Source of the DNA: Promethearchaeota archaeon
Lineage (GTDB): Archaea; Asgardarchaeota; Lokiarchaeia; Sigyniarchaeales; SOKP01
Direction of reading: 5' to 3'
Length of the DNA stretch: 19,808 nt
Assembly (NCBI GenBank): GCA_016839765.1
Contig: JAEOTP010000013.1
Span: 1 to 19,808, forward strand
Shown here: positions 1 to 18,503 of the stretch, one piece after another
Layout: each line of letters starts with the position of its first letter
Position numbering within the stretch: position 1 is the stretch's first letter
The notes under the pieces: model-generated
Seen by the model: the letters and a program-made list of their open reading frames with translations, nothing else
Database searches by the model: none
Told to the model about the DNA's origin: nothing
Program-made: the position numbers and the translations under genes

Positions 1-1328
1 ATTATTCCTGCTAATAGTTGATTGCTACCCCTTAGTGTTTCTTCAGCCCATTTACGTTCTAAAGCTCCACCAATAATTTCGGAAGAGGTTTTCAGTAAAT
101 AAAAATCTTCTTTACTCCATGTGTTCATCTTCTGAATATTATCAAACCCAATAAATCCATATAATTCTCCCTTTATATGTACTGGGAATGCTAAGAATGA
201 TTTTATAGCTAAGCTCTCTAATTTCTGTCTTGTTGCTTCAGCTTCCTTAGGAAGTTGAGAAACATCTGGAATGTAGACCTGTCCATGTTCCTGACATTGG
301 TTTAAGCACCATGGATATCTCTCAACATGAATTACCATAGAATCTAAATGTTTGGGTTCAATATCTTCAAGACACCATTGTTGAGTAAAAAATTCTAGAG
401 AGTTTTCTTCATTAAATAATAATAGGTAAGCACGATTTGCCTCTATTAACCTTCCCATTTCAATTAATGATAAATTAATTGTCATATCGGTATCAACATT
501 TCCGATAAACCTAGTAGAGATTGTTGACAAAAATTGTTCAATTATTAGTTTTCTTTTTATAATCTCTTCAAAATTTTTTTGCTCGGTAATATCCATAACA
601 ATTGTTTGCAATACTTTTTTTTTTCCCAATTTAAGTATTGACATTCTAGAACGAATCCATGCATTAGTCCCATCTTTTTTTTTAACTTGTAGCTCGATTG
701 GTTCTAATAACTCCCCTGCTTGTATCTTTTTATATCTTGATTTTAAAATTGATAAATACTTTTTTGGATATACTGGTAATTCTAAATAGTTTTTACTAAT
801 TATTTCTTCTTTCTGAAATCCAAATAATTGACTTGTAGAATCATTTAAATCTAAAATTTCTCCTTTTAAATTAACTAATATAATTGCATAAGGAGAATGT
901 TGAAATAAATGCCTAAACTTTTCTTCAGATTTTTTAAGATTCTTTTCAATTTTTATACGTTTACTTATATCTTCGGTATGTACTATGACTAAATCAGGAG
1001 GTACAAAATAATATCTAACAGATAAGTATAATTCTTTACCAGTAGTTTTCATCTTATATTTTAATTCTTTTATGTATCCTTTTTTCTCTTTTAAACATCT
1101 ATCTAATTCTACTAGAAGTTCTGGTTTATTTTCATGGAAAACAGAAGCGTTTTCACCTAAAAATTTTTTAATTATACCATTAGTAGCTTTTTCTGCAGCA
1201 ATATTATAATCTATTAGTATAAAATCGTTGTCAACCTTTTGCCAAACATATGAAGGAATAGGAATGTTGTTAAAAAAAGTTTTTATATTATCTTCTGATA
1301 TTTGAAATATATTTTCTATAGATGCCAT
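1..1328 (-). CDS. PAS-PAS-GAF sensory protein, probably the N-terminal part of a sensor histidine kinase; runs off the window start
   Basis: Not in the ORF track. Manual translation from ATG at 1328 (MASIENIFQISEDNIKTFFNNIPIPSYVW...) is open to position 1. PAS/PAC hallmarks: 'HTEDISKRIKIEKNLKKSEEKFRHLFQHSPYAIILVNLKGEILDLN' and 'KKKDGTNAWIR...VMDITEQKNFEE'. A GAF domain follows: 'ANRAYLLLF...IKSFLAFPVHIKGELYGFIGFDN...WSKEDFYLLKTSSEIIGGALERKWAEETLR'. The kinase domain is not visible in the window. Confidence 0.88.
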   Translation of the reverse strand, partial: MASIENIFQISEDNIKTFFNNIPIPSYVWQKVDNDFILIDYNIAAEKATNGIIKKFLGENASVFHENKPELLVELDRCLKEKKGYIKELKYKMKTTGKELYLSVRYYFVPPDLVIVHTEDISKRIKIEKNLKKSEEKFRHLFQHSPYAIILVNLKGEILDLNDSTSQLFGFQKEEIISKNYLELPVYPKKYLSILKSRYKKIQAGELLEPIELQVKKKDGTNAWIRSRMSILKLGKKKVLQTIVMDITEQKNFEEIIKRKLIIEQFLSTISTRFIGNVDTDMTINLSLIEMGRLIEANRAYLLLFNEENSLEFFTQQWCLEDIEPKHLDSMVIHVERYPWCLNQCQEHGQVYIPDVSQLPKEAEATRQKLESLAIKSFLAFPVHIKGELYGFIGFDNIQKMNTWSKEDFYLLKTSSEIIGGALERKWAEETLRGSNQLLAGI

Positions 1329-1471
1329 TAGATTTCTGCTCCTTAACTCTAAATAATATAATTATTTGGGAGGCTTCTAAAATATTACTTAAAATTTGTG
1401 TGCATTTATTTATTATTAGTTTTGTATATTTAAGAGTTTCTAATTAGGGTTTTTTAATTTTTGAAATTAAC

Positions 1472-1512
1472 GAGAAAATAAGGGATATGAGAAAATAAGG
1501 GATATGAGAAAA
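1472..1512. repeat. 17-bp tandem repeat GAGAAAATAAGGGATAT, about 2.4 copies
   Basis: Exact copies at 1472-1488 and 1489-1505, partial GAGAAAA at 1506-1512. Confidence 0.9.
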
Positions 1513-1523
1513 AAAAAATTTAA

Positions 1524-1811
1524 TTATATATCAAGATCTCCAAAGTTATAGTATTTTCTTACAGGTTTTTTAACATTCCATACGCACTTTAGACCTTTAG
1601 GAAATTGAACAAGATCTCCTTTTTTAAATTCAAGTTTTTCCCCTGTTGATGAATCTGTAACTTCAACTTCACCCTCTAGAATATAACAAGTCTCCGTATC
1701 GTTATATGACCAGTCAAAAACACTTTTCTCTTTTTCCCAGATACCCCAGGATTTAATATTTAAGTTATTTACTTCTTCTTCCGTAGGTTTTTTTTTTTTC
1801 ATTATTAACAC
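1524..1811 (-). CDS. Small cupin-fold protein (DUF861/EutQ-like)
   Basis: 'WGIWEKEKSVFDWSYNDTETCYILEGEVEV...FKKGDLVQFPKGLKCVWNVKKPVRKYY' is typical of DUF861 cupins. Start is GTG 1811 or ATG 1802. Confidence 0.88.
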   Translation of the reverse strand: MLIMKKKKPTEEEVNNLNIKSWGIWEKEKSVFDWSYNDTETCYILEGEVEVTDSSTGEKLEFKKGDLVQFPKGLKCVWNVKKPVRKYYNFGDLDI

Positions 1812-1980
1812 AGTTTTTTATTAGTGATGATATTTGGATGAAATTTATTTAATTAAATCTTTATAGTTTTCTCTTTACTTAAATTTAAAATTTTTAATTT
1901 CAACTATATATCTAAAAAAACCTTAATCAGAATTTTAATTTAAACTTAATTAAATCCAAAAAATAAAAAATAAAGATTTT

Positions 1981-2008
1981 TATCTAATATCTAATATCAA
2001 ATATCTAA
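1981..2008. repeat. 7-bp tandem repeat TATC(T/A)AA x4 upstream of the GTPase gene
   Basis: TATCTAA TATCTAA TATCAAA TATCTAA read directly. Confidence 0.8.
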
Positions 2009-2073
2009 CAAAATAAGTTTTAAAACTTTAAATCCTATTAAGAAGTTATAAGGAAAAAAGCTAAAAAAAAAAG

Positions 2074-2595
2074 ATGCCAAAAAAATTCATTTTAAAGATA
2101 TTGACAGCTGGAGAAGGTGGTGTAGGTAAAACGACTTTACTACACCGTTATGTAGAGGGAAGATTTTCAGCAGATACAAAAATGACGATAGGGGTTGAAT
2201 TTTTCCTTAAGGAGACAGAACTTGATGGTCAGCATTGCACATTGCAGTTATGGGATTTTGGTGGCCAAGAGCGTTTTCGATTTTTGTTAGAGAGCTATGT
2301 GTTAGGAGCAAAAGGAGCCCTTCTCATGTTTGATCTAACACGCCCCATAACATTAGAGAATTTGGAACAATGGGTCAATATCTGCCGAAAGAATAATCCA
2401 AATCTCCCTATCTTATTTTTAGGCACGAAAAATGATTTACTTGATGATGTAATGGTAGATGACGATTATGCAATAACTTTTCAGGAGGAATTTAACTTAT
2501 TTGATTACCTAAGAGTTTCAAGCAAATCTGGAGAAAATGTACAAGAAGCATTTAATTTATTAACAAGAAGGATTTTAGAAAGACAAACTTTTTGA
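2074..2595 (+). CDS. Rab-like small GTPase (Ras superfamily, Asgard type)
   Basis: G1 GEGGVGKT, switch I TIGVEF (RabF1-like), G3 LQLWDFGGQERF, G4 TKND, G5 SSK. No C-terminal Cys prenylation motif. Confidence 0.93.
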   Translation: MPKKFILKILTAGEGGVGKTTLLHRYVEGRFSADTKMTIGVEFFLKETELDGQHCTLQLWDFGGQERFRFLLESYVLGAKGALLMFDLTRPITLENLEQWVNICRKNNPNLPILFLGTKNDLLDDVMVDDDYAITFQEEFNLFDYLRVSSKSGENVQEAFNLLTRRILERQTF

Positions 2596-2619
2596 TATTA
2601 ATTCATAATAGATATTATA

Positions 2620-3051
2620 ATGTTTGAAAATGTAGTTGTAATTGATTCTAATTTCATTTTACTTCCCTTTCAATTTAAAGTAGATTATTTAAATGATATA
2701 TACTTAAAACTTGAGGGAAAAACATATTTTATTATATTCAAACAAATATTAAACGAATTAGAAGCGAAGAAAAACAGAGAATCGCAAGCTATAAAATTTC
2801 AAATGGAATTTAAATCAGGGTTATTATATTTAGATTCAAATAAAGATAAATTTAATATTTTATTTGATGGAAGTGTTAAGCAGAATTACGAAACAACCGA
2901 TGAATTTTTAATAACGCAATGTAATAGTTTAAAAAAGAGAAGTAAGCATGTCTTTTTGGCTACAAATGATTCTAATTTGCGTAAAGAAGCAAAAAGATTT
3001 GGAATTAGTACAATTTTCCTAAGACAAAAAACTTATTTATCATTCGATTAA
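2620..3051 (+). CDS. PIN-domain ribonuclease, archaeal Fcf1/Utp24-like (COG1412-type)
   Basis: N-terminal 'VVIDSNFILLPFQFKVD', 'ILNELE', 'TTDEFLI' and 'LATNDSNLRKEAK..GISTIFLRQK' carry the acidic PIN catalytic residues. Confidence 0.85.
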   Translation: MFENVVVIDSNFILLPFQFKVDYLNDIYLKLEGKTYFIIFKQILNELEAKKNRESQAIKFQMEFKSGLLYLDSNKDKFNILFDGSVKQNYETTDEFLITQCNSLKKRSKHVFLATNDSNLRKEAKRFGISTIFLRQKTYLSFD

Positions 3052-3077
3052 ATAAAAAATTATTTCCTTATTAAAAT

Positions 3078-4277
3078 TTATATTCGATTTCCAACGATCT
3101 TTCTTATATCTTCTTTTGTTAACAACACGGAATTGTTTTTTAATCCTGCACTGTTCACAATTTTTTCGATATCATCCTCTTCTATACCATGCTTTCCTAA
3201 TAGATCAATTTTTAAGTCACTCGTCCACCTTTCTAAAGTTTCAATCAATAGTGAACAGTAATAATCTATTTTAGTAGTATCAAAAGATTTATTTATATCA
3301 AACAATGCTCCAACATAAGCATATTTTTGTAATGCCAACTTCCCAGAGGTTCCTAATTCTTTTAATTTCTCTATATTCATTTTTGTACTTTCAGCTAAAA
3401 GAGTTCCACACACCACACCATGAGGTATTTCAAAAAAACCGCCAATTGGTGAAGCTAAACCGTGAATTATTCCTAATCCCGCATTTGCTAAGCATATGCC
3501 TGAAATTAAAGATCCATAAGCCATTGATGATCTAACACTCACATCAGAGGACCCTGTTGTGCAAGCAGGGATAATCGCATCTTTCATATACTTCATACCA
3601 CCATAAGCCAAGGAGTCTGTCATAGGATTTGATTTATTCGAAGTATAAGCTTCTAAAAGTTGGGTGAAAGCATCCATCCCACAAGCAGCTGTAACTGATG
3701 GAGGGCATGAAATTATAAGCTCTGGATCAATAATAGCATAATTAGGAATTAAATTATCATGCCTTAATGACTTTTTAAACCCTCCAGATCCAATTTCACT
3801 TATGACGGCATTTTTAGTTGCCTCACTTCCGGTTCCTGATGTTGTGGGAATGGCTATATAAGGGATTTTGTATCCATCATGTTTTTTAGTTCCCACTCCT
3901 TCAAGATAATTTTTAATTGAGTCTTTTTTAAGCATCATTGCAGAGATTGCTTTCCCGGCATCCGTTACACTACCTCCCCCTATTCCAACAACTAAATCAG
4001 GTTTTTTATCCCTATATTGATTTACTATAGTATCCACTAGAGTAGGTGAGGGTTCTCCTGAAACCGAAACATAATAATAATTTATTGAGTTAATTTCTAA
4101 ATTTTTTATTATCTCACTCCATTTTCCTGATTTTTTTAAAGATTTTTCACCAATTATAAAAAGTACAATCTTTCCAAATCTAGTAATAATATCAAAGAGT
4201 TGAGTTATTGCTCCAGGACTGAAAATAATATGAGGAATACTAGCAAAATTAAAAGAAGGAATCATAACTTTTATCAT
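3078..4277 (-). CDS. Iron-containing (type III) alcohol dehydrogenase
   Basis: GIGGGSVTDAGK, IPTTSGTGSEAT, metal-site motifs DAFTQLLE / GIIHGLA / PHGVVCG. Confidence 0.93.
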   Translation of the reverse strand: MIKVMIPSFNFASIPHIIFSPGAITQLFDIITRFGKIVLFIIGEKSLKKSGKWSEIIKNLEINSINYYYVSVSGEPSPTLVDTIVNQYRDKKPDLVVGIGGGSVTDAGKAISAMMLKKDSIKNYLEGVGTKKHDGYKIPYIAIPTTSGTGSEATKNAVISEIGSGGFKKSLRHDNLIPNYAIIDPELIISCPPSVTAACGMDAFTQLLEAYTSNKSNPMTDSLAYGGMKYMKDAIIPACTTGSSDVSVRSSMAYGSLISGICLANAGLGIIHGLASPIGGFFEIPHGVVCGTLLAESTKMNIEKLKELGTSGKLALQKYAYVGALFDINKSFDTTKIDYYCSLLIETLERWTSDLKIDLLGKHGIEEDDIEKIVNSAGLKNNSVLLTKEDIRKIVGNRI

Positions 4278-4432
4278 TCTTTACTTTATTTTAACATTTT
4301 TTATAAAAATTTATGAATAAAACATATCATCATTAAATGTAAGATTAAATCATTAATGTTTTTATAATAAGATTTTTAACTTTAATTGGATAATTTGTTT
4401 AATAATAAAGGCTATGGAATTGGTTATTCAAA

Positions 4433-4771
4433 ATGAAAAAAGTCAACGAAAATGATCTTGAATATAGAAAAGGTGAAAGTGGTGTAAAGTACCTAATGCG
4501 TGGACCAAGTATTGATTGGGGAGTAATCTTTCTTAAACCGGGTGAGATGATGGGAGATAAAGCGCATGGACATAATATTATTGATGAAACCTTCTATTTT
4601 ATGGAAGGTAATGGCGTTATGATTGTTAATGATAAAGAAATCCCTGCTCCTCAAGGTAGTGTCTTCCTTTGTGAACCAAAAGAAATGCATAATATTAGAA
4701 ATGATTCAAATAAACCCGTAAAGATTGTATTTATTAAAGGAGAGTATAAACCGGATGATAAAATTGAATAG
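4433..4771 (+). CDS. Cupin-2 domain protein
   Basis: Metal motifs 'HGHNIIDETFYFMEG' and 'PKEMHNIRN'. Confidence 0.88.
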   Translation: MKKVNENDLEYRKGESGVKYLMRGPSIDWGVIFLKPGEMMGDKAHGHNIIDETFYFMEGNGVMIVNDKEIPAPQGSVFLCEPKEMHNIRNDSNKPVKIVFIKGEYKPDDKIE

Positions 4772-4809
4772 CAAATTAGAAAAATAATAAGAATTTTGAG
4801 TTAATAAGT

Positions 4810-5199
4810 ATGGCAAAAAAGAAAGGTAAAAAAAGTAAGAAAGGAAAAGGACGTGGAGGGAGCAGTCTACCTCCCGTTATCACGCGTGTAAAATTTCCTA
4901 ATAAAGGATTAGGAGAAATGTTTGGAAGAGTAGTCGAAATCTATGGTAATGATCGTATGGGTATATTTTGCGAAGATGGAAAGCATCGAATGGGTAGAAT
5001 TCGCGGTAAAATAAAGAAAAGAGTGTGGATACGTAGGGGTGATCTAGTTATAGTGAATCCGTGGGATTGGGAGACAGAAACTAGTAATGAGCCTGGTAAG
5101 TGTGAAATAACATGGAGATACACAAATGCTGAGATAGGTTGGTTAGAACGTAAGAATAGGATACCTGAAATATTGGATATTAATAATATCCCCTTATAG
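4810..5199 (+). CDS. eif1a: Translation initiation factor aIF-1A
   Basis: OB-fold signature 'GEMFGRVVEIYGNDRMGIFCEDGKHRMGRIRGKIKKRVWIRRGDLVIVNPWDW...ITWRYT..EIGWL'. Confidence 0.95.
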   Translation: MAKKKGKKSKKGKGRGGSSLPPVITRVKFPNKGLGEMFGRVVEIYGNDRMGIFCEDGKHRMGRIRGKIKKRVWIRRGDLVIVNPWDWETETSNEPGKCEITWRYTNAEIGWLERKNRIPEILDINNIPL

Positions 5200-5296
5200 A
5201 TCATATAATATTTTTACCTCAAATGTTTCTGATTCATACGATTTATTATATTTCTTATTAAAAAGCAAAATTTTAAAATTTAGGAATACCTAAAGA

Positions 5297-5327
5297 TCTT
5301 AGACTTTTTTTTCTAAGACTTTTATAA
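5297..5327 (+). promoter_or_regulatory. Putative spt5 promoter: inverted repeat TCTTAGA-N8-TCTAAGA abutting TATA-like TTTTATAA
   Basis: Dyad arms at 5297-5303 and 5312-5318. TTTTATAA at 5320-5327, about 50 nt upstream of ATG 5374, with GTGAT ribosome-binding site before the start. Confidence 0.4.
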
Positions 5328-5373
5328 TAAATTATAATGTAGGAGAATTCAAATAAGGATTAAGTGATAAAAA

Positions 5374-6135
5374 ATGGTTGATCAAGAAAATAACGTCAAT
5401 GAAAGTGAAGAAAAAGAACTGAAAATTGATGAACCAAGTATTTCAAGTGATCTAGAGGAGAAGGAAGATTTAACTACTTTATTCGCAGTAAGAACAACGA
5501 TTAACCAAGAAAGCAATATTTTACGTCAAATTTTCTACCGGTTCAAGATACTCGAGGGTGTCCCTGATATAAGAGCTATGTTGGTTTCACCTCTACTTCC
5601 TGGCTACGTCTTTTTTGAGGCTCCTCAAAAGAGGGATGTACAGGTAGCAGTTCAGGGAATTCCTCATATTAAAGGAAGAATCGTACAAAACATCAAATTA
5701 AAAGAATTAAAACATGTTTTACTCCCAAGAAGTGTTACAGAATACTTAGAAGAAGGAGATACTGTAGAAATTATTAGTGGAGTTTTTGAAGGTGCCCGAG
5801 CTATAGTAATGCGAATGCCTCATGATACGTCAAGTAGCGAAGAGGTTGTAGTAAGATTATTACAAGAAGAGACTCCGATTACAATAAAGATTCATGGAGA
5901 TTATTTAAAATTAGTCGAAAAGAAAACACCAGAAAAGAAAGAAATACCAAAAGTGAGAATAAGTCAAGCAGAAATTAGCACTGATTTAGAAAAGGCAATT
6001 AGTTTTGATGATGAACTGGAAGAAGTTGAAGAAGAATATTCAGAGCAGTATAGCGAGGAAAAAGTTGAAGAATATACTGATGATGAAGAAGAATATGACG
6101 AAGACGATGAATGGGCTAAATTTGACGGATTTTGA
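5374..6135 (+). CDS. spt5: Transcription elongation factor Spt5 (NusG family) with acidic N- and C-terminal extensions
   Basis: NGN domain 'LFAVRTTINQE...LLPGYVFFEAP...VQGIPHIKG'. KOW domain 'LEEGDTVEIISGVFEGARAIV...EEVVVRLL...PITIKIHGDYLKLV'. Confidence 0.9.
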   Translation: MVDQENNVNESEEKELKIDEPSISSDLEEKEDLTTLFAVRTTINQESNILRQIFYRFKILEGVPDIRAMLVSPLLPGYVFFEAPQKRDVQVAVQGIPHIKGRIVQNIKLKELKHVLLPRSVTEYLEEGDTVEIISGVFEGARAIVMRMPHDTSSSEEVVVRLLQEETPITIKIHGDYLKLVEKKTPEKKEIPKVRISQAEISTDLEKAISFDDELEEVEEEYSEQYSEEKVEEYTDDEEEYDEDDEWAKFDGF

Positions 6136-6403
6136 TTTTATTTTTCTAATTTTAACATAATATATTCTAATTTTTACACGAATTAATTGATTTCTTAGTA
6201 GAGATTAACTTTTCATAATATCTGAGTGTGTTTTGTGTTAATTCTCCTTAAAATCATATTAATTGAAAATAATTTTTAGAAAGGATACTAAAAGTTAGTT
6301 GCCACCGTAAAAATATTATGATATGTAAAAGAGTTTTTATAGAAAAACTTTCATAAAAGAAATATAGAGGTAATTTTTAAGAATAATTAAATTTTAGATT
6401 GGT

Positions 6404-7150
6404 ATGATTAAAAACATCTTCATAATGAAATCAACAGGAGAATTAATTTTCTACAAGACATATGAAGATATTTTTAACATCAAATTAACAAGTAGTTTTT
6501 TGAGTGCAATTTTTAGTTTTGTAAAGCAAACTCTTCGAACAAAAGAATTATCCGAAATAGAGGTTGGACCTTTTAGATTTATATTTGAAATTGAGAAAGC
6601 AAATTCCAGCGAATTAATGTTTGCCTTGTTTAGTGATCGTACAGATAATTTAGTCGAACTAAGAAATCAGCTAAAAGAAATAAAAAGTCAATTTTTGGAT
6701 AAATTTGATTTAAATCTCCTTACAGATAATTTTGATGGAGAAGTATCAAAGTATCTAGAATTTGAGGATAATATACACGAGATCATGGAGAGAAGTAAAA
6801 AACTGATATCTAAAGAAATTCAAAAAGACCTGATAGAGGTATTTCAAGAATTGCATACTTTTTCTTCATTTGTTATTTCTTCAGCATTGTTAACTCAAAC
6901 AGGCAGAATAATTGTTTCCTATTTAGATACAAATGTCTTATCAGAAATAATTAGGCTTTTAGAAAGTCGATTTATTATAGGCAATTCAAGAATACATGAG
7001 TTAATATCCCTTGAGGATTATGGAATATTATCGTTAGTTGGAATAGATAATTTTATCTCAATTATCCAATTTAAAAAAAATTGCCCATTTGAATCTGCAA
7101 TGATAATTTCAAAAAAATTTTCTACAAGATTAAAGAAGCTAATTATTTAG
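6404..7150 (+). CDS. Longin-like N-terminal domain fused to a roadblock/profilin-like C-terminal domain (Asgard eukaryotic-signature-type protein)
   Basis: 'MIKNIFIMKSTGELIFYKTY...LTSSFLSAIFSFVKQT...LSEIEVGPFRFIF...LMFALFSD...LKEIKSQFLDKF...FDGEVSKYLEF' fits the longin pattern. 'LIEVFQEL...VISSALLTQTGRIIVSYL' fits a roadblock/profilin start. Fold assignment is by pattern only. Confidence 0.65.
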   Translation: MIKNIFIMKSTGELIFYKTYEDIFNIKLTSSFLSAIFSFVKQTLRTKELSEIEVGPFRFIFEIEKANSSELMFALFSDRTDNLVELRNQLKEIKSQFLDKFDLNLLTDNFDGEVSKYLEFEDNIHEIMERSKKLISKEIQKDLIEVFQELHTFSSFVISSALLTQTGRIIVSYLDTNVLSEIIRLLESRFIIGNSRIHELISLEDYGILSLVGIDNFISIIQFKKNCPFESAMIISKKFSTRLKKLII

Positions 7151-7242
7151 AAAATAAAATTTTAAAAAAATTAAAAAGCCAAATCATATTTTTTTAAGCA
7201 CAATCCTATAAAATAGCAAAAAATTTAAAGAGGAGTTAAAGG

Positions 7243-8547
7243 TTGGAAGAGAAAAAATTAAATAAATTTATGGATCAAGCCATTAATGATGAGATCCTTG
7301 AGAAATTAAGCTTAAAAAACAGATATCAATTCCTCAATACTACTCTAATGACTGCATTAGAACCAGAGCAGCTGAACTTCCTTAAAAAAGCTGAAAAATT
7401 TTGTATACGTTATGAAAAAAAGAATGATATCACTCATAGTGGTGATGAGGATTTATATGAGTGGATTCCTGATTTTGGAAAAGAAGGGTTAATCTCAAGA
7501 GTTCATCCATTTGATGAGATTGATCTTAGTTATCCAGAAAATGGATTGGCTGTTGAATTATTAAGATGCCTTGCACTTAATTTTTTCGATCCTCAATTCT
7601 CTATGGGAGGGGGGGCCACTGTACTTGCTATAAATCCTGTGTATGAACATCACGAAAACATTCCAATTAGATTAGAAGTTTTAAAGAAATTTGTTACTGG
7701 TGAAACTCCTGGAGCAATCCTTATTACAGAGCCAGAGAGAGGTTCAGATGCGGTTCATATGTTGAGTCTCTGCGAAGAGCAGCCAGATGGGAGCTTTATT
7801 TTGAATGGTGAAAAAATCTACAATACAAATGCTCCTAAGGCAGGATATGTTGTCGCTTATGCCACTGCAGAGAAAAACAATGGGAATACTATGGCTCAGT
7901 TTCTTATTGATACGACATGGGATGGTTGGAATTGTGATCGTGTTTTCATCCCTTGGGTTCCCAGAGTGTGGTTAGGCCATGAACACTTCGTAAATTTAAG
8001 AGTACCGAAAGAATTCGTATTAGGTGGAATTGGTAAGGGTAGAGAACATTTATTCGAAGGCTTGGTGCCTGAAAGAATTGGTATCGCATTAGATTCCACT
8101 TCTCAATGTTGGAATGCTATTGCTCATGCTGCAATATATGTAAATAATAGGAAGCAGTTTGACCAAGAAATACTTAAATTTCAAGGGGTTGGATTTCTAT
8201 TAACTGACTTGTGGGCGAGATTAACCAATGTTACCTTAGGTTTATTGCGTTTCTGTGAGAAATATGATGAAAAAGTAGAAAAGTTTGGCGGTGAATTACC
8301 AAAAAACCTTTCTCAAGCTATGGTAGCTTCTGCATCAATGTTTAAATATCATTGTACTTCCCTATCCATGCAGATCTGTTATGAAGCAGCAAATCTTATG
8401 GGAGGTGCTGGTTTGTGCGACAATACCTTGATGCATGACTTACTAAATATATCTAGAATTCAAGAAATTGTAGGTGGCAGTAGACAGATACAACAATATA
8501 TAATGTCTATGGCCATGAGAACCCTGTATAAGATGACAGGGATTTAG
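7243..8547 (+). CDS. Acyl-CoA dehydrogenase (paralog 1)
   Basis: ITEPERGSD, LNGEKIYNTNA, RKQFDQEILKFQGV, MGGAG, IQEIVGGSRQIQ. TTG start preceded by GAGGAG. Confidence 0.93.
   Translation: MEEKKLNKFMDQAINDEILEKLSLKNRYQFLNTTLMTALEPEQLNFLKKAEKFCIRYEKKNDITHSGDEDLYEWIPDFGKEGLISRVHPFDEIDLSYPENGLAVELLRCLALNFFDPQFSMGGGATVLAINPVYEHHENIPIRLEVLKKFVTGETPGAILITEPERGSDAVHMLSLCEEQPDGSFILNGEKIYNTNAPKAGYVVAYATAEKNNGNTMAQFLIDTTWDGWNCDRVFIPWVPRVWLGHEHFVNLRVPKEFVLGGIGKGREHLFEGLVPERIGIALDSTSQCWNAIAHAAIYVNNRKQFDQEILKFQGVGFLLTDLWARLTNVTLGLLRFCEKYDEKVEKFGGELPKNLSQAMVASASMFKYHCTSLSMQICYEAANLMGGAGLCDNTLMHDLLNISRIQEIVGGSRQIQQYIMSMAMRTLYKMTGI
7618..7652. repeat. 35-bp perfect inverted repeat, left arm (partner 9754-9788)
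   Basis: ACTGTACTTGCTATAAATCCTGTGTATGAACATCA; the reverse complement is read at 9754-9788. Confidence 0.9.
8397..8426. repeat. 30-bp perfect inverted repeat, left arm (partner 8980-9009)
   Basis: TATGGGAGGTGCTGGTTTGTGCGACAATAC; the reverse complement is read at 8980-9009. Confidence 0.9.
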
Positions 8548-8648
8548 GATAAAGACATTTAATTCATTTTTTCTTTTTTTTAGACTTTGTATTCGAATAT
8601 ATTAATCTAAACATTAACCTAAATTTATTTATGAGCTCTCATAAGAGC

Positions 8649-8730
8649 TTTAATAGTCAATAATAGAAGGAGATGATACTATAGTCCTTGGAGTCTCTTC
8701 CAATGATTACTAAAAAATTATACTTTTTTT
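8649..8730 (+). ncRNA. Candidate small structured RNA (two-stem hairpin with tandem G-A/K-loop-like apex)
   Basis: Lower stem 8649-8659/8704-8714, upper stem 8666-8674/8693-8700, tandem GA pairs 8675-8676/8691-8692. TATA-like TTTATTTA at 8624-8631 and T7 at 8724-8730. No family recognised. Confidence 0.3.
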
Positions 8731-8858
8731 AACTTTTTTCTGATAAGTTGCCAAATTAATACTAATTCTGTTACAATTCCAATACTAAAAATCTCAATTA
8801 ATGCTTAGAATTAAAAAATTTAAAAAAAAATTGAGTTCTTTAAAGTTGTATACCCAAA

Positions 8859-10157
8859 TTAGCTTACTGACATTTTAAAAAGTGTACGCAATGATAAACT
8901 CATAATATATTGCTGAATTTGTCGAGAACCGCCAACAATCTCCTGAATTCTCGAAATATTCATATAATCATGCATAAGTGTATTGTCGCACAAACCAGCA
9001 CCTCCCATATTATTAGCACACTCATAACAGACCTTTTTAGACAATTTTGAGAGATTATATTTAAACTGGCTTGCTGATGCGACCATTGCCTGTGAGATAT
9101 TTCTTGGAATCTCTCCTCCAAATTTCTCGTATTTCTCGTCGAATGCTTCACAGAATTTCAGCAATCCAAGCGTCAGATTTGTTGTACGAGCCCATAGATC
9201 TGCAAGTAAAAATCCAACTCCCTGAAATTTAAGGATTTCTTGATTAAACTGTTTTCTAATATTTGCGTATATGATTGCATGTGCTAATGCTCCCCAGCAT
9301 TCACTTATACCCATAACTGCGATTGAAATTCTCTCTGGTACAAGTCCTTCAAAGAGATGTTCTCTTCCCTTTCCTACACCACCCAATATATATTCTTTTG
9401 GCACCCTTACATTAGTTAGAGTTTCTTTTCCTAGATACAATTTTGGAACCCAAGGTATATTTACCCGCTCTACGTGAAATCCATCCCAAGAGGTATTTAT
9501 TAAAAATTGAGCCATCTTGCTACCTACATTCTGCTCTGCCGTAGCATATCCTACAACCCATTTTGATCGGGGTGCATTAGTATTATAGATTTTAACTCCG
9601 TTAAGGAGAAAGCTACCATCTTCTTGCTCATCACAAGTTGTTAATTGATGTACGGCATCGGAGCCTCGTTCTGGTTCTGTGATAAGAATTGCCCCTGGAC
9701 TTTGCCCTGTAACTAATTCTTTTAAGGCTTCTAATCTGACAGGTACATTTTCATGATGTTCATACACAGGATTTATAGCAAGTACAGTAGCGCCTCCTCC
9801 CATAGCAAATTGAGGATCAAACATATCAATTGCTATATTTCTCATCAAATCGGCTGCTAAGCCCCACTCTTCATAGTGTACGTCACATATATCAAAAGTG
9901 TGTTGGCGAGAAATATATCCTTTTTCTCCAAACTCAGGTACCCAATCATAAATATCTTCATCAGGACCGTGTGTAATATTATTCTTTTTCTCAAATCTCA
10001 AGCAAAAACGTTGGACTTCACGTAAAAAGTTAAATTCTTTCGGACTTAAGATTGAAGTTAAGTTATTATTTAAGAAAGCATACCGATTTTTCAAGCTCAT
10101 TTTTTCTAAAATTTCATCATTAATGGCTTGAACTTCAAATTTTTTTCTTTCACTCAT
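8859..10157 (-). CDS. Acyl-CoA dehydrogenase (paralog 2, convergent with paralog 1)
   Basis: Same motif set (ITEPERGSD, LNGVKIYNTNA, RKQFNQEILKFQGV, MGGAG, IQEIVGGSRQIQ), collinear with paralog 1 over the full length. Confidence 0.93.
   Translation of the reverse strand: MSERKKFEVQAINDEILEKMSLKNRYAFLNNNLTSILSPKEFNFLREVQRFCLRFEKKNNITHGPDEDIYDWVPEFGEKGYISRQHTFDICDVHYEEWGLAADLMRNIAIDMFDPQFAMGGGATVLAINPVYEHHENVPVRLEALKELVTGQSPGAILITEPERGSDAVHQLTTCDEQEDGSFLLNGVKIYNTNAPRSKWVVGYATAEQNVGSKMAQFLINTSWDGFHVERVNIPWVPKLYLGKETLTNVRVPKEYILGGVGKGREHLFEGLVPERISIAVMGISECWGALAHAIIYANIRKQFNQEILKFQGVGFLLADLWARTTNLTLGLLKFCEAFDEKYEKFGGEIPRNISQAMVASASQFKYNLSKLSKKVCYECANNMGGAGLCDNTLMHDYMNISRIQEIVGGSRQIQQYIMSLSLRTLFKMSVS
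8980..9009. repeat. 30-bp perfect inverted repeat, right arm (partner 8397-8426)
   Basis: GTATTGTCGCACAAACCAGCACCTCCCATA. Confidence 0.9.
9754..9788. repeat. 35-bp perfect inverted repeat, right arm (partner 7618-7652)
   Basis: TGATGTTCATACACAGGATTTATAGCAAGTACAGT. Confidence 0.9.
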
Positions 10158-10279
10158 TTTTAATGCCTATTTTTTATTTTGATTTATTAGTAGAAAATAA
10201 GTATAAAGAGGAAAATACAATGTGATTTTTTAAGTTTTTTTTATATCGAGGAGGTTGGGTTTTTATTTCAGATAATTTT

Positions 10280-10729
10280 TTAACCAACACCATGTTTACC
10301 TGCATAATAAGCACCAAACAAGTGTAAAAAGTAAGTAATAGCAGTAATACCTCCATAAATAACTCCTAATGCCCAAGTTAATCCCCACATTAAAATTATG
10401 CTCACATAAAATAATATAAGAAACGGGATCAGGATGGATTTCTTGCGTGGGTTTCGAAATTCAATTTTCTTAACGTAATCCACAATTAAACTAAATAATA
10501 TGAATCCTACTAATAATAGAGGAAAAAACCAATACCACCATTCACGTTGAAGTATAAGGTTAATTATTGCGAAAATTAACGTCGGGATTCCAAGCGATAA
10601 GGAAAAAATCCCAATCTTTTTTGATACTCCTGGATTTTTTACACGCGATAGAAAAAGTGCAAATACCGATAGATTAAATATGTTAATAATAATAAATTCC
10701 ATTATATCCAATATAAAGTTAATTTCCAT
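10280..10729 (-). CDS. Hypothetical integral membrane protein (about 5 TM segments)
   Basis: Alternating hydrophobic stretches and a 'VDYVKKIEFRNPR' loop. The GTG at 10738 is more likely part of a GTGAT ribosome-binding site, so ATG 10729 is preferred. Confidence 0.75.
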   Translation of the reverse strand: MEINFILDIMEFIIINIFNLSVFALFLSRVKNPGVSKKIGIFSLSLGIPTLIFAIINLILQREWWYWFFPLLLVGFILFSLIVDYVKKIEFRNPRKKSILIPFLILFYVSIILMWGLTWALGVIYGGITAITYFLHLFGAYYAGKHGVG

Positions 10730-10844
10730 AATTATCACTTTTATATTAAACTTTTAAGTTTATTAATCTTCCTAGATTTATCAATTGAATTAATAATAGC
10801 CCTAAATATTAAGGAACATAAAAACTTATAAATTTGATTTAACA

Positions 10845-11744
10845 ATGAAGATTTTAATTACTGGAAGTGCAGGATTTATCGGATCAAATCTTAAAGATTT
10901 ATTGGAAAAAGTAGGCATTGAAACCATATCTTATGATATCAGAGATAATCCTAAAGATGACGTGAAAGACTTTGATCGTTTACGGTCAAAAATTAAAAAT
11001 ATAGGAGGCGTTATTCATTTAGCTGCAGTAAGTAGGGTAAAAGTGGCTCAAGAAAATCCTTTAGAATGTGTACAAACTAATATAGGAGGGACAGTTAACA
11101 TTCTTGATGCTGCAAGACAGGAGATAGCTAATGGTAAACATCCATGGATTATTTTTGGATCATCTAGAGAAGTCTACGGAGAACCAAAAATTTTGCCTGT
11201 TACAGAAGATTTTCCTCGAAATGCGATTAATATATATGGAATTTCAAAAGTCACAGGAGAAGATTTATGCAAGATGTATTCTGAGCATTATAAGTTAAAA
11301 ACAAGGGTCTTAAGATTTTCAAATGTATATACCGGTCTTAAAGATCAATTAGATAGAGTAATCCCGAAATTTATTCTTCAAGCATTAAAGGATGAGGATT
11401 TAGTTATTAATGGAACTGGCGAGGAACTATTTGATTTTACCTATATTAATGATACTATTCAAGGTATAGATGCGTGTGTTCAAGAAGTTTTAAAAAGTGA
11501 TATTTCATTCGAGCATTTTAATATTTCAAGTGGAATTCCAGTTACTTTAAGAGAATTAGCTGAATTAATTATAAAGAAGACAGAGAGTAATAGCCACATA
11601 AAATTTACTAAATCAAGATCGTACGATGTAAACAAATTTTATGCTGATCCAATTAAATCTAAAAAAAGCTTAGGAATTTTCCCGAAAATATTAATAGACG
11701 GAGGAATCGAATTAGCTATTAAAGAATTAAAGAAAATTAAATAA
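10845..11744 (+). CDS. NAD-dependent nucleotide-sugar epimerase/dehydratase (extended SDR)
   Basis: ITGSAGFIG, IHLAA, SSREVYG, YGISK (YxxxK), LRFSNVY, FDFTYIND. Confidence 0.92.
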   Translation: MKILITGSAGFIGSNLKDLLEKVGIETISYDIRDNPKDDVKDFDRLRSKIKNIGGVIHLAAVSRVKVAQENPLECVQTNIGGTVNILDAARQEIANGKHPWIIFGSSREVYGEPKILPVTEDFPRNAINIYGISKVTGEDLCKMYSEHYKLKTRVLRFSNVYTGLKDQLDRVIPKFILQALKDEDLVINGTGEELFDFTYINDTIQGIDACVQEVLKSDISFEHFNISSGIPVTLRELAELIIKKTESNSHIKFTKSRSYDVNKFYADPIKSKKSLGIFPKILIDGGIELAIKELKKIK

Positions 11745-11782
11745 AATAAAATAATATTAATTAAAATTTATTAGAAAAAAAT

Positions 11783-11992
11783 TTATTCCTCTTCTTCTCC
11801 TCCCATTAAATCTTCAATCTTAGCTTCTATCTCTTCAACTTTATCGTCAAGTTCAGCTATCTTTTTATAGGTTTCGCAGGTTTCACATCCATCATCTTGT
11901 TCACATTCAGGAAGCGTATCACAAATTTCTTCTAGTTGATCTCTTTCTTCTAATAATTTTTCAACTTGATCTTCAAGTTCTTCAATACTCAT
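11783..11992 (-). CDS. Small acidic coiled-coil protein with central C-x5-C-x5-C-x2-C motif
   Basis: Strong ribosome-binding site GAAGGTG 6 nt before ATG. Heptad-like helices flank CDTLPECEQDDGCETC. Confidence 0.8.
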   Translation of the reverse strand: MSIEELEDQVEKLLEERDQLEEICDTLPECEQDDGCETCETYKKIAELDDKVEEIEAKIEDLMGGEEEE

Positions 11993-12129
11993 GGTTTACA
12001 CCTTCAAAAGTAATTATATAAAATTTATCATAATTTAAGTTTTTTTCTGTTTTAAAAACTCATCTAATAATCTACTAATATTTTAAGTAGAGCTTTTGCT
12101 AAAAAAGGGAAAAGTTAAAAAAATAAAAA

Positions 12130-14175
12130 TTAGGATGGTAATTTTTCCATTTTAATTTGAATTTCCTTATTCAAAGAATCGATGTCTTTATCTAATTTTT
12201 TCAGTTCCTTTGATATTATTTCAAATCTATTTTCTTGGTCATTAAATTTTTTAATATATCGCTCTTTTAGTGAAATTGATTGAGAATCATCACCCAAAAC
12301 GGAAATATTTTCTCGAAGTCTTGCTTGTTCATCTGTCATTACATCTCTTTCTTCATATAATTTTTCTCTTTTATTTTTAAGATCATTTAATTTCTGGATT
12401 GATTCTGCTATTTCTTTGAGTTGATTTTCGAGTGCGGTGTCAATAAATTTCTTTCTTACATAAAATCCAACTCTTTTTATAAAATCATCTTTTGACCAAT
12501 TCCATAAATAATTACTAGAGTAATTTTCTCTCTGTTCTTTTAATGTAAAAGTAATCGCATCCATAGGTTTTAATGAAATTTTAAACCGCCAATAGTTAGT
12601 GGTTTCCTCGGGATCTAAGGGTTTTTCAATGAATTTATAATCATAGTTTTTCGGGTGATCAAGATATAATTCCTTTTCTTCATTGGTTTTGTTTTTTATT
12701 TTATAGATCGTAGTAAGATTACTATAGTAATGTTCATAGGAATATCCGCTTCCGAAAGTGACTTTGTGTACACTTTGATTTTCTGATTTCTGCTCGTGAG
12801 TGATTATTATGGCTTGTTCCACAGCATAATTTAAAAGTCTAATATCTCCTTTATTCAAGAAGGGAACCATTGCTTCTCCAGCAAGATTATCATCATAAAT
12901 TATTGTAGCGGGTCCTCTTTCTAAAGTTAATTCTGTATTATTTGTTATCTCAATACAGGCATTAGGATTTTTATCATGCTCATTTTTGTTGTATAGCAAT
13001 ATCTTTTTTGCTTTAATTGATTCTGTTAAAATAGGTACTAAAGCCGATTGTTTTCTCTTTATTGAAACTGGTTTTGCTATATTATACTCAAATAGTTCTC
13101 CTAAATCCTTAGTTTGAGTTTGTGTTTGAGATTTAATTTTATCCATAAGTGCACCGTCGGATAATGTACTACCTAGAGCTCCAAAACCACCACTTGGTGG
13201 TGCCATCGCTGGCGGTGCTCCGGGAGCGGCCATCTTTGCTTTTCTTTTCATAGCTCTTGATGGTGAAGCTGCTTCTGCCATAGTGAAATCCCTAAATTTC
13301 TCTTTTTCTAATCCTTCTTCAATCTCAGTTGGTTTTGCGCTTAATACTCTTGGTGGTCGAATTACAGGTCTTTGAATAAAAATTGGTCTATAAAATTCGT
13401 ACTTAAAAGAAACGGGCATTCCAGCAACCAAACTCAATTCAATATTTTCCCAATCTTGATTGGTAGTGTTTTCGATTAAGCTCCATCCAGATAATAAACA
13501 CTTATTCTCTAAGGCTTGTTGTTTACTCATGATTAAGCGATATGAGGTCTTCCAAATTGGACTTTCTCTAATATATGATACAAAAATGTTCCTTTCAATA
13601 TCTTCCTCTCCACCAGATTCACAATTGATCATGATTTTTTTAGAATCTTTCTTTTTTCCAGCAATAACAGTATCCAAAAAAAATTTCAAATCTTTCTTTA
13701 TATCTTCATTTAATATATCTAATGATTTTATTTCCTCGAAGCTTATTTTTGTTATAGACTCCTGATCTTCTAATAAAACAAGTTTTTTTTCAAGAATTTT
13801 TTCATTTTTAATGGCTTTTTCTACTGTTTCAACGCCCATTATCGTTCCTGAAATCTTTTTTCCACCACCAATAGTTAGATCAACATTGGCACCCTTGATT
13901 TGTGCAACAAGAGAGCTAAATGAATCAATATCAGGTATGTTTAACATTATTGATTTTAATAATTGAGAGGTTTCTAAAGCAGCATCATAGGATATTGAGC
14001 TTATATATCCCTTCTCACTCGTATCTAATACGAAAAGAGATTTTAATATGTCATCCATCTCATCTATTTTAAATTCAATCTCAAACGTATCAGTTCCTTT
14101 AACATTACCCTCAAGAATATAGTAAGAAACTCCATGTTTAAAAATAATGACTTTCTTTACTTTTAGTTTTGACAT
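12130..14175 (-). CDS. DUF4139-like protein with C-terminal coiled coil
   Basis: 'VIIFKHGVSYY', 'MDDILKSL', 'PIWKTSYRL', 'GWSLIENTTNQDWENIELSLVAGMP' and 'LGELFEYNIAKPVSIKRKQSALVPI' resemble DUF4139-family motifs. Start is ATG 14175 or 14196. Confidence 0.78.
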   Translation of the reverse strand: MSKLKVKKVIIFKHGVSYYILEGNVKGTDTFEIEFKIDEMDDILKSLFVLDTSEKGYISSISYDAALETSQLLKSIMLNIPDIDSFSSLVAQIKGANVDLTIGGGKKISGTIMGVETVEKAIKNEKILEKKLVLLEDQESITKISFEEIKSLDILNEDIKKDLKFFLDTVIAGKKKDSKKIMINCESGGEEDIERNIFVSYIRESPIWKTSYRLIMSKQQALENKCLLSGWSLIENTTNQDWENIELSLVAGMPVSFKYEFYRPIFIQRPVIRPPRVLSAKPTEIEEGLEKEKFRDFTMAEAASPSRAMKRKAKMAAPGAPPAMAPPSGGFGALGSTLSDGALMDKIKSQTQTQTKDLGELFEYNIAKPVSIKRKQSALVPILTESIKAKKILLYNKNEHDKNPNACIEITNNTELTLERGPATIIYDDNLAGEAMVPFLNKGDIRLLNYAVEQAIIITHEQKSENQSVHKVTFGSGYSYEHYYSNLTTIYKIKNKTNEEKELYLDHPKNYDYKFIEKPLDPEETTNYWRFKISLKPMDAITFTLKEQRENYSSNYLWNWSKDDFIKRVGFYVRKKFIDTALENQLKEIAESIQKLNDLKNKREKLYEERDVMTDEQARLRENISVLGDDSQSISLKERYIKKFNDQENRFEIISKELKKLDKDIDSLNKEIQIKMEKLPS

Positions 14176-14289
14176 AGGATTATTATAAGCAACCATGAAT
14201 TTAAATATTAATTTGCTAGAATTAAATTCGGAATTAGAAGTTAAAATATTTAATAAAATTAATAAAAAGTTGGAAGAATTAGAGTACTA

Positions 14290-14796
14290 TTATAGACTCC
14301 TTAGAATTATTTCAAGCAAATCTTCTTCTAAAGTAGACTCATATTTTGGATTTTCTACAATAGCTCCAAGATAATCTCCATTCTTATTGAAAAAATAAAA
14401 GGTCGGAATTTTTTTTAAATCAAATTTAGGATCCACTACTTCTGGTGGTGATCGTGTTTTATGCCAAATAGTTTCCCCAGGTTTGTGAAATGCATTTGTC
14501 ATAATTCCATATAAAATTTTAAAATCCAAATTGTTTTTATTCATATACTTAAAAATCTTGATCATGGGAGGAATATTTTTTGAGCAATCAGGGCACCAAT
14601 CTGCTCCAAAAGCTAATATCTTTAAATTTTCATTTTTGCTATTTAGGAGTTTTTCTATTCTTTTAATGACATCAATTTTTAGCTTATAGCTTTTGTAGTT
14701 GTAGGCAATCTTATCATTATAAATCTTTAGATACTCATCTGGAGTCATGGTTGGAGAAACAAGTTCACTCCATTTTACTATATTTTTTGATGCCAT
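14290..14796 (-). CDS. Thioredoxin-family protein (WCPDC)
   Basis: 'ILAFGADWCPDCSKNIP...KIPTFYFFNKNGDYLGAIVENP'. The 19 N-terminal residues in the ORF track look like intergenic sequence, so ATG 14796 is preferred. Confidence 0.85.
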   Translation of the reverse strand: MASKNIVKWSELVSPTMTPDEYLKIYNDKIAYNYKSYKLKIDVIKRIEKLLNSKNENLKILAFGADWCPDCSKNIPPMIKIFKYMNKNNLDFKILYGIMTNAFHKPGETIWHKTRSPPEVVDPKFDLKKIPTFYFFNKNGDYLGAIVENPKYESTLEEDLLEIILRSL

Positions 14797-14948
14797 AATA
14801 CAAAGATAAATAACCATAATTAAAAAAAATTCTTGTAGTGAGTCATAAATCACTTGAATTTATAGAAGTTAATCAAAACTATAATAAATAAAAATTGAAT
14901 TATAACATTACAATCGAAAAATTCTTTTATTACTAAAGGTGGGAAATT

Positions 14949-16784
14949 ATTTTAAAAGGTTTCAGGGGGGAATTGTTAAAGATTGATTTAACTAATTCTG
15001 AAGCTTTTATGGAACTTTTAAATGAGGAAATCGCTAAAAATTTCTTAGGTGGAGCGGGTTATGCCTGTCGCTATTTATATAATAAATTAGATCAAAAAAC
15101 AGATCCGCTTTCTTCTGAAAATATTATCATGATAATGACTGGTCCGTTAAACGGAACATTTGCTCCAAATACAGGACGATGGGTTGTTTGTTCAAAATCT
15201 CCTTATACAGGGATTTGGGGGGAATCAAATTGTGGAAGTTGGTTTGGTGCTGAATTAAAGAAGGCAGGATATGATGGGATTATAATTTCAGGTATAGCTA
15301 ATAAACCTGTTTATCTTACAATCAACGATGACAAGATAGAATTTAAGGAAGCAAGTGAGTTATGGGGAAAAGGTACATACTATACAACAGAAAAATTAAA
15401 AGAGTGGTTTGGAGATCAAAAAGCTCAAGTTGCTTGTATTGGACCTGCTGGAGAAAATTTAGTTAAATTTGCAAATATTGTCTCAGAAGAAAGAGCAGCA
15501 GGTCGGACAGGTATGGGGGCTATTTTTGGCTCAAAAAAGCTAAAAGGAATAATTGTAAAAGGAGGTAAAATCAAATTAGATGTTGCTAATCCAGAACAAC
15601 TAAAAGAAATGATAAATAAAGCAAGAGACACAGTAAAAGCTTCATTTGCTACCCAAATGTTAAGGGATTTAGGAACATCAGGAGGAATGGATATGTATAA
15701 TGTGACAGGTGAATTACCAATTAAGTATTTTACACATCCTCAGTGGGAAGGTGCATATAATATATCTGGAGCAACAATGGCAGAAAATATTTTAGTTGGT
15801 AATAGATTTTGTCATTCATGTGTTATTGGATGCGGTAGGAGAGTCGCAATAAAAGAAGGTCCCTATAGGACCGCCGAGATCGAAGGTCCTGAATATGAAA
15901 CCCTTGTGAGTTATGGCTCTCTATTTTTAAATGATAATTTAGAATGGATTACTCATATAAATAGAAAGTGTTTTGACTATGGAATTGATACAATTAGTTC
16001 AGGGAGTATTATTTCTTGTGTTACTTATCACTATAAACAAGGTAATATCAAAACAGAGGATTTAGACGGATTAAAACCAGATTGGGGTAAAACAGAAGTT
16101 GCGGAAAAATTATTAGAAAGAATCGTATATAGAAAAGGAGTAGGAAATCTATTAGCTGACGGTTCTGATGCTCTCGCAAAAAAATTTAAAATATCTCAAG
16201 ATGAGATTGCTACGGTCAATGGTATGGAAGTAACATACCATGATCTACGTTCTAATTATGGAATGGCAATTGCATATGGGATGGGATTAAAAGGACCATC
16301 TCATAATTTACTAGATGCGTATTATGTTCTGATTGGAGTTCCATTAGAAGAGATTGGAATTGAAATGGTTGATAAATTCTCTGATAATGAAGATATGGCA
16401 GAATTATGTTCTTTAATTATGGATTATAGAGCCTTATACAGTTCTATGATAATGTGTTCTTTCTGTAATCCTCTACCGTCTCAAATTGCCAAATTAATTG
16501 AATATACTACAGGTTTGAAATTTGGACTTGATGAAGTTAAACAATATGGGGAACGAATTGCGAATCTTAAAAGACTATTTAATGTTAGAATGGGTTTAAC
16601 ATCGGAAGAAGATCGATTACCTGAAATTTTATTGAAGATTTTTAGTGAGGGTGGAGCAGCTGGTAAATCTCCTGATTTTGAAAAACTTAAATCATTACTC
16701 TATAAGTTTAAAGAATGGGACCCTACTTCTGGTAGACCAAGTATAAAAAAATTGAAAAATTTAGGTTTGAATGACTTACAATAA
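14949..16784 (+). CDS. aor: Aldehyde:ferredoxin oxidoreductase (tungstopterin family)
   Basis: KSPYTG, GESNCG, ACIGPAGEN, RAAGRTGMGAIFGSKKLK, 4Fe-4S motif CHSCVIGC, GPEYET, DYGIDTIS, MIMCSF, EDRLPE. The ORF track starts at TTG 14973, but AOR-like sequence extends upstream to ATT 14949 (see findings). Confidence 0.93.
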   Translation: MLKGFRGELLKIDLTNSEAFMELLNEEIAKNFLGGAGYACRYLYNKLDQKTDPLSSENIIMIMTGPLNGTFAPNTGRWVVCSKSPYTGIWGESNCGSWFGAELKKAGYDGIIISGIANKPVYLTINDDKIEFKEASELWGKGTYYTTEKLKEWFGDQKAQVACIGPAGENLVKFANIVSEERAAGRTGMGAIFGSKKLKGIIVKGGKIKLDVANPEQLKEMINKARDTVKASFATQMLRDLGTSGGMDMYNVTGELPIKYFTHPQWEGAYNISGATMAENILVGNRFCHSCVIGCGRRVAIKEGPYRTAEIEGPEYETLVSYGSLFLNDNLEWITHINRKCFDYGIDTISSGSIISCVTYHYKQGNIKTEDLDGLKPDWGKTEVAEKLLERIVYRKGVGNLLADGSDALAKKFKISQDEIATVNGMEVTYHDLRSNYGMAIAYGMGLKGPSHNLLDAYYVLIGVPLEEIGIEMVDKFSDNEDMAELCSLIMDYRALYSSMIMCSFCNPLPSQIAKLIEYTTGLKFGLDEVKQYGERIANLKRLFNVRMGLTSEEDRLPEILLKIFSEGGAAGKSPDFEKLKSLLYKFKEWDPTSGRPSIKKLKNLGLNDLQ

Positions 16785-18473: not shown

Positions 18474-18503
18474 TAATTTCTTGAAAATATTTACAAAAAT
18501 CTA

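Follow-up and report, generated by a model that had tools for sequence, protein, structure and literature searches.

Probable short gene-conversion patches between convergent acyl-CoA dehydrogenase paralogs in a Lokiarchaeial genome

Organization of the locus

The stretch of DNA analysed here, hereafter the window, comprises 19,808 nucleotides (positions 1 to 19,808 of the forward strand of contig JAEOTP010000013.1, GenBank assembly GCA_016839765.1) from a metagenome-assembled genome (MAG) of a Promethearchaeota archaeon of the Lokiarchaeia. The window has a G+C content of ~30% and carries two paralogs of the acyl-CoA dehydrogenase (ACAD) family, genes A and B, which are convergent and collinear and show 69% identity in protein and 66% in DNA. 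Both products matched the middle (Acyl-CoA_dh_M, PF02770) and C-terminal (Acyl-CoA_dh_1, PF00441) Pfam models above the gathering cut-offs, and in trees each gene fell into an orthogroup of its own, A and B respectively. An initial annotation of this DNA had described two genes facing each other across 311 bp and sharing two perfect inverted tracts, and had proposed gene conversion or an invertible, domain-swapping locus to account for them. The coordinates confirmed this arrangement, and the features discussed below are as follows.

7243-8547, forward strand: gene A, ACAD-family paralog, 434 codons counted from the first TTG (true start uncertain)
7275-7292, forward strand, with partner at 10114-10131, reverse strand: 18-bp common stretch coding for a conserved peptide, within chance
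7618-7652, forward strand: 35-bp tract in A, coding for TVLAINPVYEH(H), 35/35 identical to B; probable converted patch
8397-8426, forward strand: 30-bp tract in A, codons of (M)GGAGLCDN(T), 30/30 identical to B; probable converted patch
8548-8858, no strand assigned: AT-rich spacer of 311 bp between both stop codons
8859-10157, reverse strand: gene B, ACAD-family paralog, 432 codons
8980-9009, reverse strand: 30-bp tract in B, probable donor copy
9754-9788, reverse strand: 35-bp tract in B, probable donor copy

Direct string comparison confirmed that 7618-7652 is the reverse complement of 9754-9788 at all 35 positions, and that 8397-8426 is the reverse complement of 8980-9009 at all 30. We relied on this comparison because an inverted-repeat search with default settings returned only long arms of 73-74% identity, from which the perfect cores were not singled out. 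The arms are separated by 2101 bp in the 35-bp pair and by 553 bp in the 30-bp pair. In the 3.3-Mb assembly, the 35-, 30- and 18-bp tracts were found nowhere but at A and B, and the exact 35-mer was absent from all other records of the genome and metagenome collections searched.

The two long tracts exceed chance expectation

The initial annotation had set the tracts against diverged silent sites, counting codon differences at 11 of 17 and at 14 of 20 positions in two blocks of identical peptide, and our recount gave exactly these figures. Over all residues identical between A and B, the same codon was used at 130 of 288, compared with 129 +/- 7 when codons were shuffled within each gene. Because the observed codon identity equals the shuffle expectation, the silent sites of the pair are saturated, that is, fully randomised apart from codon bias. 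In 20,000 codon shuffles, the probability of a longest run of at least 35 bp was 0.0009, and a second run of at least 30 bp never appeared (0/20,000, P below 5e-5). Natural controls were provided by 571 A-versus-B pairs drawn from different genomes, whose longest runs had a median of 16, a 99th percentile of 33 and a maximum of 40; none of them (0/571) carried a second run of at least 30. When the window genes themselves were paired with foreign partners, runs did not exceed 26 for window A against foreign B genes and 21 for window B against foreign A genes. Both sets of controls thus place the pair of long tracts beyond chance, as the annotation had supposed.

The third shared tract to which the annotation had drawn attention, 18 bp near both 5' ends, does exist but is not remarkable, codon shuffling giving a longest run of at least 18 bp with P = 0.38. 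It is present whole or with one change in several orthologs of both clades and holds no diagnostic site.

The tracts are restricted to the window's lineage

The ACAD subfamily was present in all 24 sampled species genomes of the same genus (24/24), mostly as clusters of two or three genes. Trees resolved clean orthogroups A and B, a third type, X, and a type represented on contig C63. Since A and B form clean orthogroups across the genus, the duplication that separated them predates it. Type X is missing from the window's subclade, which has lost it.

The convergent B/A arrangement was also found in the four nearest relatives (G019, G013, G022 and the L059 MAG), and synteny of the nearest relatives with the window extends to both sides at 88-94% identity. 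In the four nearest relatives (L038, L039, L040 and L059), the longest runs shared by A and B were only 20-26, so that both tracts are lacking, and the alignment showed that silent sites at the tract positions vary among these relatives. Elsewhere in the genus, the order and orientation of the cluster differ (B> <X <A; B> X> MFS> <A; B> A> <X), as observed at L044:3499-9079, L045:1843-8073, L047:144-4564 and L043:4117-8587. Comparison of G005 with G017 revealed an inversion, located between B and A, of the segment that comprises paralog X and the gene of an MFS transporter. Mediation of this inversion by the 3' ends of the paralogs found no support, as the 3' bins and the genes' own 3' flanks stay orthologous, without a trace of recombination inside the paralogs.

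The spacer exceeds that of the nearest relatives (~90 bp from stop codon to stop codon) by ~220 bp, and its alignment to the G019 spacer contained 219 gap columns. BLAST searches with the spacer found nothing similar in relatives, and in its own genome only short, AT-rich stretches matched; the Rfam search gave no credible match (best E = 0.65). The region of gene B and the spacer (8550-10050) is only 74-88% identical to G019, while identity is mostly 91-99% to the left of it and reaches 98-100% in the right flank, at 10950-12300. Most of the differences between B and its G019 counterpart are silent, and the proteins are 92-93% identical. This pattern suggests a mosaic history of the B region, in which either a divergent B allele was imported by homologous recombination or the flanks were exchanged recently.

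Gene A deviates from its orthologs inside the tracts and gene B does not

We then compared each gene with its orthologs inside and outside the tracts. For gene A, 12 of the 65 tract positions differed from the nearest ortholog, against 53 of 1234 positions outside (Fisher P = 4.4e-5). For gene B, the tracts showed no excess of differences (11/65 inside versus 206/1231 outside, P = 0.54). Outside the tracts, A matches the A gene of G019 at 96.5% (N-terminal segment), 95.3% (middle) and 95.8% (C-terminal) of DNA positions, while its segments are only about 60-70% identical to B orthologs. Inside them, the matches to A of G019 fall to 28/35 and 25/30; more widely, the 35-bp tract of A shares 26-28 of 35 positions with A orthologs that are otherwise ~96% identical to it, and the 30-bp tract shares 25 of 30 with the nearest A orthologs. 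The 35-bp tract of B, by comparison, matches B orthologs at 28-33 of 35 positions (33 in G013), which is normal or better for gene B, and its 30-bp tract matches them at 22-25 of 30, the rest of B being ~82% identical.

Four sites within the tracts are fixed for different states in near A and near B genes, and window A has the B state at all four (4/4). Two of them are amino-acid changes. In the 35-bp tract, A has Glu (GAA) at a position that is Asn, Phe or Tyr in near A orthologs and Glu in all the B-clade genes shown; in the 30-bp tract, it has Cys (TGC), like the B-clade genes, where the nearest A orthologs have Ser (TCT). As A alone deviates in the tracts and carries the B states, A is the recipient and B the donor for both. 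A foreign A allele was also considered as the source of the patches and was rejected, given the 35/35 and 30/30 identity to the resident B gene and the B-clade amino-acid states.

Every segment of A and of B grouped with its own orthologs when compared separately, as had been recommended in the initial annotation; all flanking segments remained A-like in A and B-like in B, and a clade-affinity scan along A dipped in no bins other than the two containing the tracts. Since the flanks keep their orthology, the patches are of the non-crossover type. For this point we relied on per-segment identities and on the clade-affinity scan, segment trees with midpoint rooting being uninformative. The tracts are thus significant, lineage-specific and directional, and occur without exchange of flanks. 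That A and B show no difference over the 65 bp would make the patches much younger than the split from G019.

Similar tracts occur in other neighbouring paralogs

Analysis was extended to 148 distinct ACAD genes from 86 loci across the Lokiarchaeia. The longest identical run in paralog pairs from the same locus had a median of 27, a 90th percentile of 57 and a maximum of 170, whereas between-genome pairs of equal divergence had a median of 17 and a 99th percentile of 32. By codon shuffling at P <= 0.01, tracts were significant in 34 of 80 same-locus pairs and in only 2 of 150 pairs from different genomes. These controls, of which 6 of 150 fell at P <= 0.05, show the test to be well calibrated. 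The 68 tracts of at least 30 bp were found in pairs of all three orientations (convergent, divergent and tandem), at positions all along the gene, and their sequences differ from genome to genome. Significant pairs made up 23 of 38 convergent, 8 of 26 tandem and 3 of 11 divergent pairs, counts in which pairs share ancestry; these figures are suggestive of convergent pairs carrying tracts more often. The largest conversion patch of the survey is a perfect 170-bp tract at L065:2992-6020, in a MAG labelled Hermodarchaeota (DZ1M.447), where a convergent ACAD pair that is 74% identical carries two further tracts of 53 and 41 bp.

An all-against-all screen of the open reading frames (ORFs) of the window's own genome detected significant tracts in 7 of 30 neighbouring paralog pairs (<10 kb apart) compared with 3 of 86 distant pairs, and the neighbouring pairs with tracts belong to various families. 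No significant longest run was found between A or B and the unlinked paralogs on contigs C63 and C1. Because tracts recur in many genomes and families, and in neighbours more than in distant pairs, the exchange is general and dependent on proximity, and not peculiar to this locus or its sequences. Besides A and B, six other neighbouring pairs of this genome (G000), from unrelated families, contain identical runs of 27-58 bp (P <= 0.01) and are candidates for conversion patches:

C14:9287-12722
C33:17933-27795
C96:9797-15529
C33:148254-160020
C67:144583-145709
C4:28811-31166

Recent conversion of A by B is the favoured explanation

We consider it very likely that the two tracts are recent, very short, non-crossover gene-conversion patches copied from B into A. 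After the split from the closest sampled relatives, two short stretches of A, of about 28-35 bp and about 20-30 bp, would have been overwritten by sequence of the neighbouring B gene through ectopic gene conversion of the non-crossover type, a non-reciprocal form of homologous repair. With each patch, one amino-acid change (Asn/Phe/Tyr to Glu, and Ser to Cys) would have entered A and made it more B-like. The probable route is RadA-dependent strand invasion of the paralog, followed by short repair synthesis or a heteroduplex patch and by dissolution without crossover. The genome encodes two full-length RadA proteins above the curated cut-off (G000:C3:29571-30494 and G000:C72:15904-16830), and the Pfam model of the Hjc resolvase had no match in this 96%-complete MAG. 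The inverted 35- and 30-bp identities would then be a by-product of repair and not a functional site. Gene conversion had been listed in the initial annotation as an alternative, and the observations that the tracts are lineage-specific, that A is altered and B the donor, and that the flanks are orthologous, all speak for it.

Several points weigh against this explanation. Compared with classical conversion tracts, the patches are unusually short, and their direction is fixed by only four strictly diagnostic sites. In the 30-bp tract, the TGC-GAC codons are exact in neither ortholog set, and therefore one or two extra substitutions in B are needed before the transfer. The source genome is a MAG of 96 contigs with 3.45% contamination, and the surveyed pairs are phylogenetically related, so that the counts overstate the number of independent events. 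Finally, a template switch during replication would leave the same footprint as RadA-mediated repair.

Such a template switch, in which the nascent strand briefly copies the inverted neighbouring paralog and then returns (copy-choice, or a correction resembling that of quasi-palindromes), is the alternative that survives best, though we judge it improbable. The shortness of the patches, at 30-35 bp, fits it well, and A and B do form a large imperfect inverted repeat with only 311 bp between them. The greater frequency of tracts in convergent than in tandem or divergent pairs also points in this direction, but that contrast is confounded by shared ancestry. Significant tracts are found in tandem and divergent ACAD pairs too, and in neighbouring paralogs of other families that lie in the same orientation in this genome. 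In addition, the arms lie 0.55 and 2.1 kb apart, and the arm spacing of classical quasi-palindromes is far below these distances.

The initial annotation had favoured an invertible locus, in which crossover at the tracts flips the interval and generates up to four arrangements of chimeric enzymes. On this reading, only a fraction of the population would make such chimeras, and the tracts would be retained for the sake of the exchange. Part of its reasoning holds: a crossover at either pair of perfect in-frame inverted repeats is physically possible and would preserve both reading frames while swapping the gene ends, and cluster order and orientation do vary in the genus, including the inversion of the MFS gene and the third paralog between B and A. 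We found no sign, however, that inversion happens or is selected. The tracts are missing from the nearest relatives, conserved in neither position nor sequence, and the window genes are collinear with their orthologs, none of which is chimeric (0/49): not one gene, whether among the 21 of type A or the 28 of type B, moves to the other clade in affinity as its 3' end is approached. After the genus-level inversion, B and A still have orthologous 3' ends, each next to its own 3' flank. No recombinase or invertase domain was detected in any ORF of at least 95 amino acids (aa) in the window, in line with the annotation's remark that no recombinase gene is visible there. A search of the genome and metagenome collections for other assemblies with the 35-mer, in which a flipped arrangement might have been seen, yielded none. 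Moreover, tandem and divergent pairs, which do not allow such an inversion, carry tracts of the same kind. For these reasons, although inversion may occur rarely within the population, a programmed invertible locus seems highly improbable.

We assign an equally small probability to chance coincidence or to an artefact of MAG assembly or consensus calling. Long blocks of identical peptide combined with biased codon usage, and the short-read origin of the assembly, would favour such an origin; yet chance is excluded for the pair of tracts by the shuffles and natural controls, and between-genome comparisons show the shuffle test to be well calibrated. An assembly that took a wrong path through a shared k-mer would be expected to exchange flanks and not to leave A-type sequence at either end of a 35-bp patch, and the same pattern is seen in many MAGs that come from various studies and differ in how their contigs are named. 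Least probable of all, and refuted by the absence of conservation, is selection at the nucleotide level on a protein- or RNA-binding site, small RNA target or translational pause element shared by both mRNAs, an idea also raised in the annotation as a shared nucleic-acid binding site: both tracts do lie in strongly conserved peptide blocks and some of their G/C-ending codons are unusual for a ~30% GC genome, but silent sites inside the tracts vary freely in orthologs of both genes, neither tract sequence nor position is conserved, the 35-mer is in no other genome or metagenome record, and in other genomes identical stretches of other sequences lie elsewhere in the gene.

Domain composition of the A and B proteins and neighbouring genes

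The closest solved structures to the A and B proteins were the caffeyl-CoA reductase CarC (6fah_C) and butyryl-CoA dehydrogenase (1buc). The middle beta-domain and the C-terminal helical domain match these CarC/Bcd structures with E = 4e-22 (about 1e-22) and are thus common to A, B and both enzymes. Two features may set A and B apart from these ACAD enzymes. The N-terminal ACAD domain of Pfam (PF02771), which is alpha-helical, had no match in either protein at E <= 0.001, so that ~140 N-terminal residues carry no domain assignment. In addition, the Glu of the YEG motif, the usual catalytic base of ACADs, is replaced by Gly in the A/B proteins, as seen in the alignment to CarC over residues ~275-285 and 405-412. 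In the same alignment, the A/B proteins have a Glu within a PER motif where CarC reads GR, a position that we take to be the catalytic base site of isovaleryl-CoA and long-chain ACADs.

Genes with a eukaryote-like character adjoin the ACAD pair, coding for a Ras-family small GTPase, Spt5 and a putative longin-domain protein (window 2074-2595, 5374-6135 and 6404-7150). The Spt5 protein has 253 aa, with long extra tails. The third of these proteins, 248 aa long, matched the first longin domain in FUZ/MON1/HPS1 weakly and below the cut-off (E = 0.001). The window also codes for aIF1A.

Discussion

If the perfect inverted tracts are scars of recent repair copying, the locus gives no grounds for expecting programmed chimeric enzymes. 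Neighbouring Asgard paralogs of the Lokiarchaeial type often swap very short patches, as the survey shows: some 40% of ACAD pairs from one locus carry them, and so does roughly one in four neighbouring paralog pairs in this genome. Such patches can mislead fine-scale phylogenies and scans for recombination or selection in Asgard gene families, and the exchange moves amino-acid states between paralogs. They also offer a sequence readout of the tract lengths of homologous recombination, for organisms whose recombination proteins closely resemble those of eukaryotes and which can hardly be worked with in the laboratory.

A broader proposal, which we put forward tentatively and consider rather unlikely, is that micro-conversion of 30-170 bp is both pervasive and orientation-biased in the Lokiarchaeia, with convergent neighbours as its preferred substrates. 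It would imply that the archaea most closely related to eukaryotes possess a specific short-patch pathway, for which tightly restrained synthesis-dependent strand annealing or template switching at inverted repeats would be candidates. Single amino-acid states would then keep passing between enzyme paralogs that have otherwise diverged.

Among known systems, the locus can be compared with programmed inversion, with conversion in polyploid archaea and with ectopic conversion between paralogs. Hin/Gin-type invertases, shufflons and homologous inversion between inverted gene copies share with it inverted repeats in or beside coding sequence and a possible in-frame exchange of gene ends. Unlike those programmed systems, it has no dedicated recombinase, no conserved sites and no chimeras in relatives, and its repeats are of recent, incidental origin.

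Ectopic gene conversion between linked paralogs is a long-established process, known from bacterial tuf genes and rRNA operons and from archaeal chaperonin paralogs. The case described here resembles it in the non-reciprocal copying within one genome, in tracts of identity that stand against saturated silent sites, in a phylogenetic conflict confined to the tract and in a stronger effect between closely linked copies. It departs from concerted evolution by ectopic conversion in that A and B stay separate orthogroups and only micro-patches of ~30-170 bp move, and from the known cases of paralog conversion in that the host is an Asgard archaeon. Within the archaea, gene conversion between the paralogs mtrA-1 and mtrA-2 of methanogens has been detected with GENECONV (PMC4632066). 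Among the titles and abstract openings covered by our literature search, no treatment of paralog conversion in Asgard archaea was found, and in a review on Asgard archaea the term occurs in the reference list alone. Gene conversion also equalises the genome copies of the polyploid Haloferax volcanii (PMC11276520), and an equivalent role in methanogens is cited in PMC12993045. That process likewise involves the archaeal homologous-recombination machinery and a non-crossover outcome; it is allelic, acting between sister chromosomes over long stretches, whereas the tracts described here are tiny and join paralogs of 66% identity on the same chromosome. The best reading is therefore that the locus is a fresh example of a known process, an ordinary by-product of repair and not a DNA-flipping switch.

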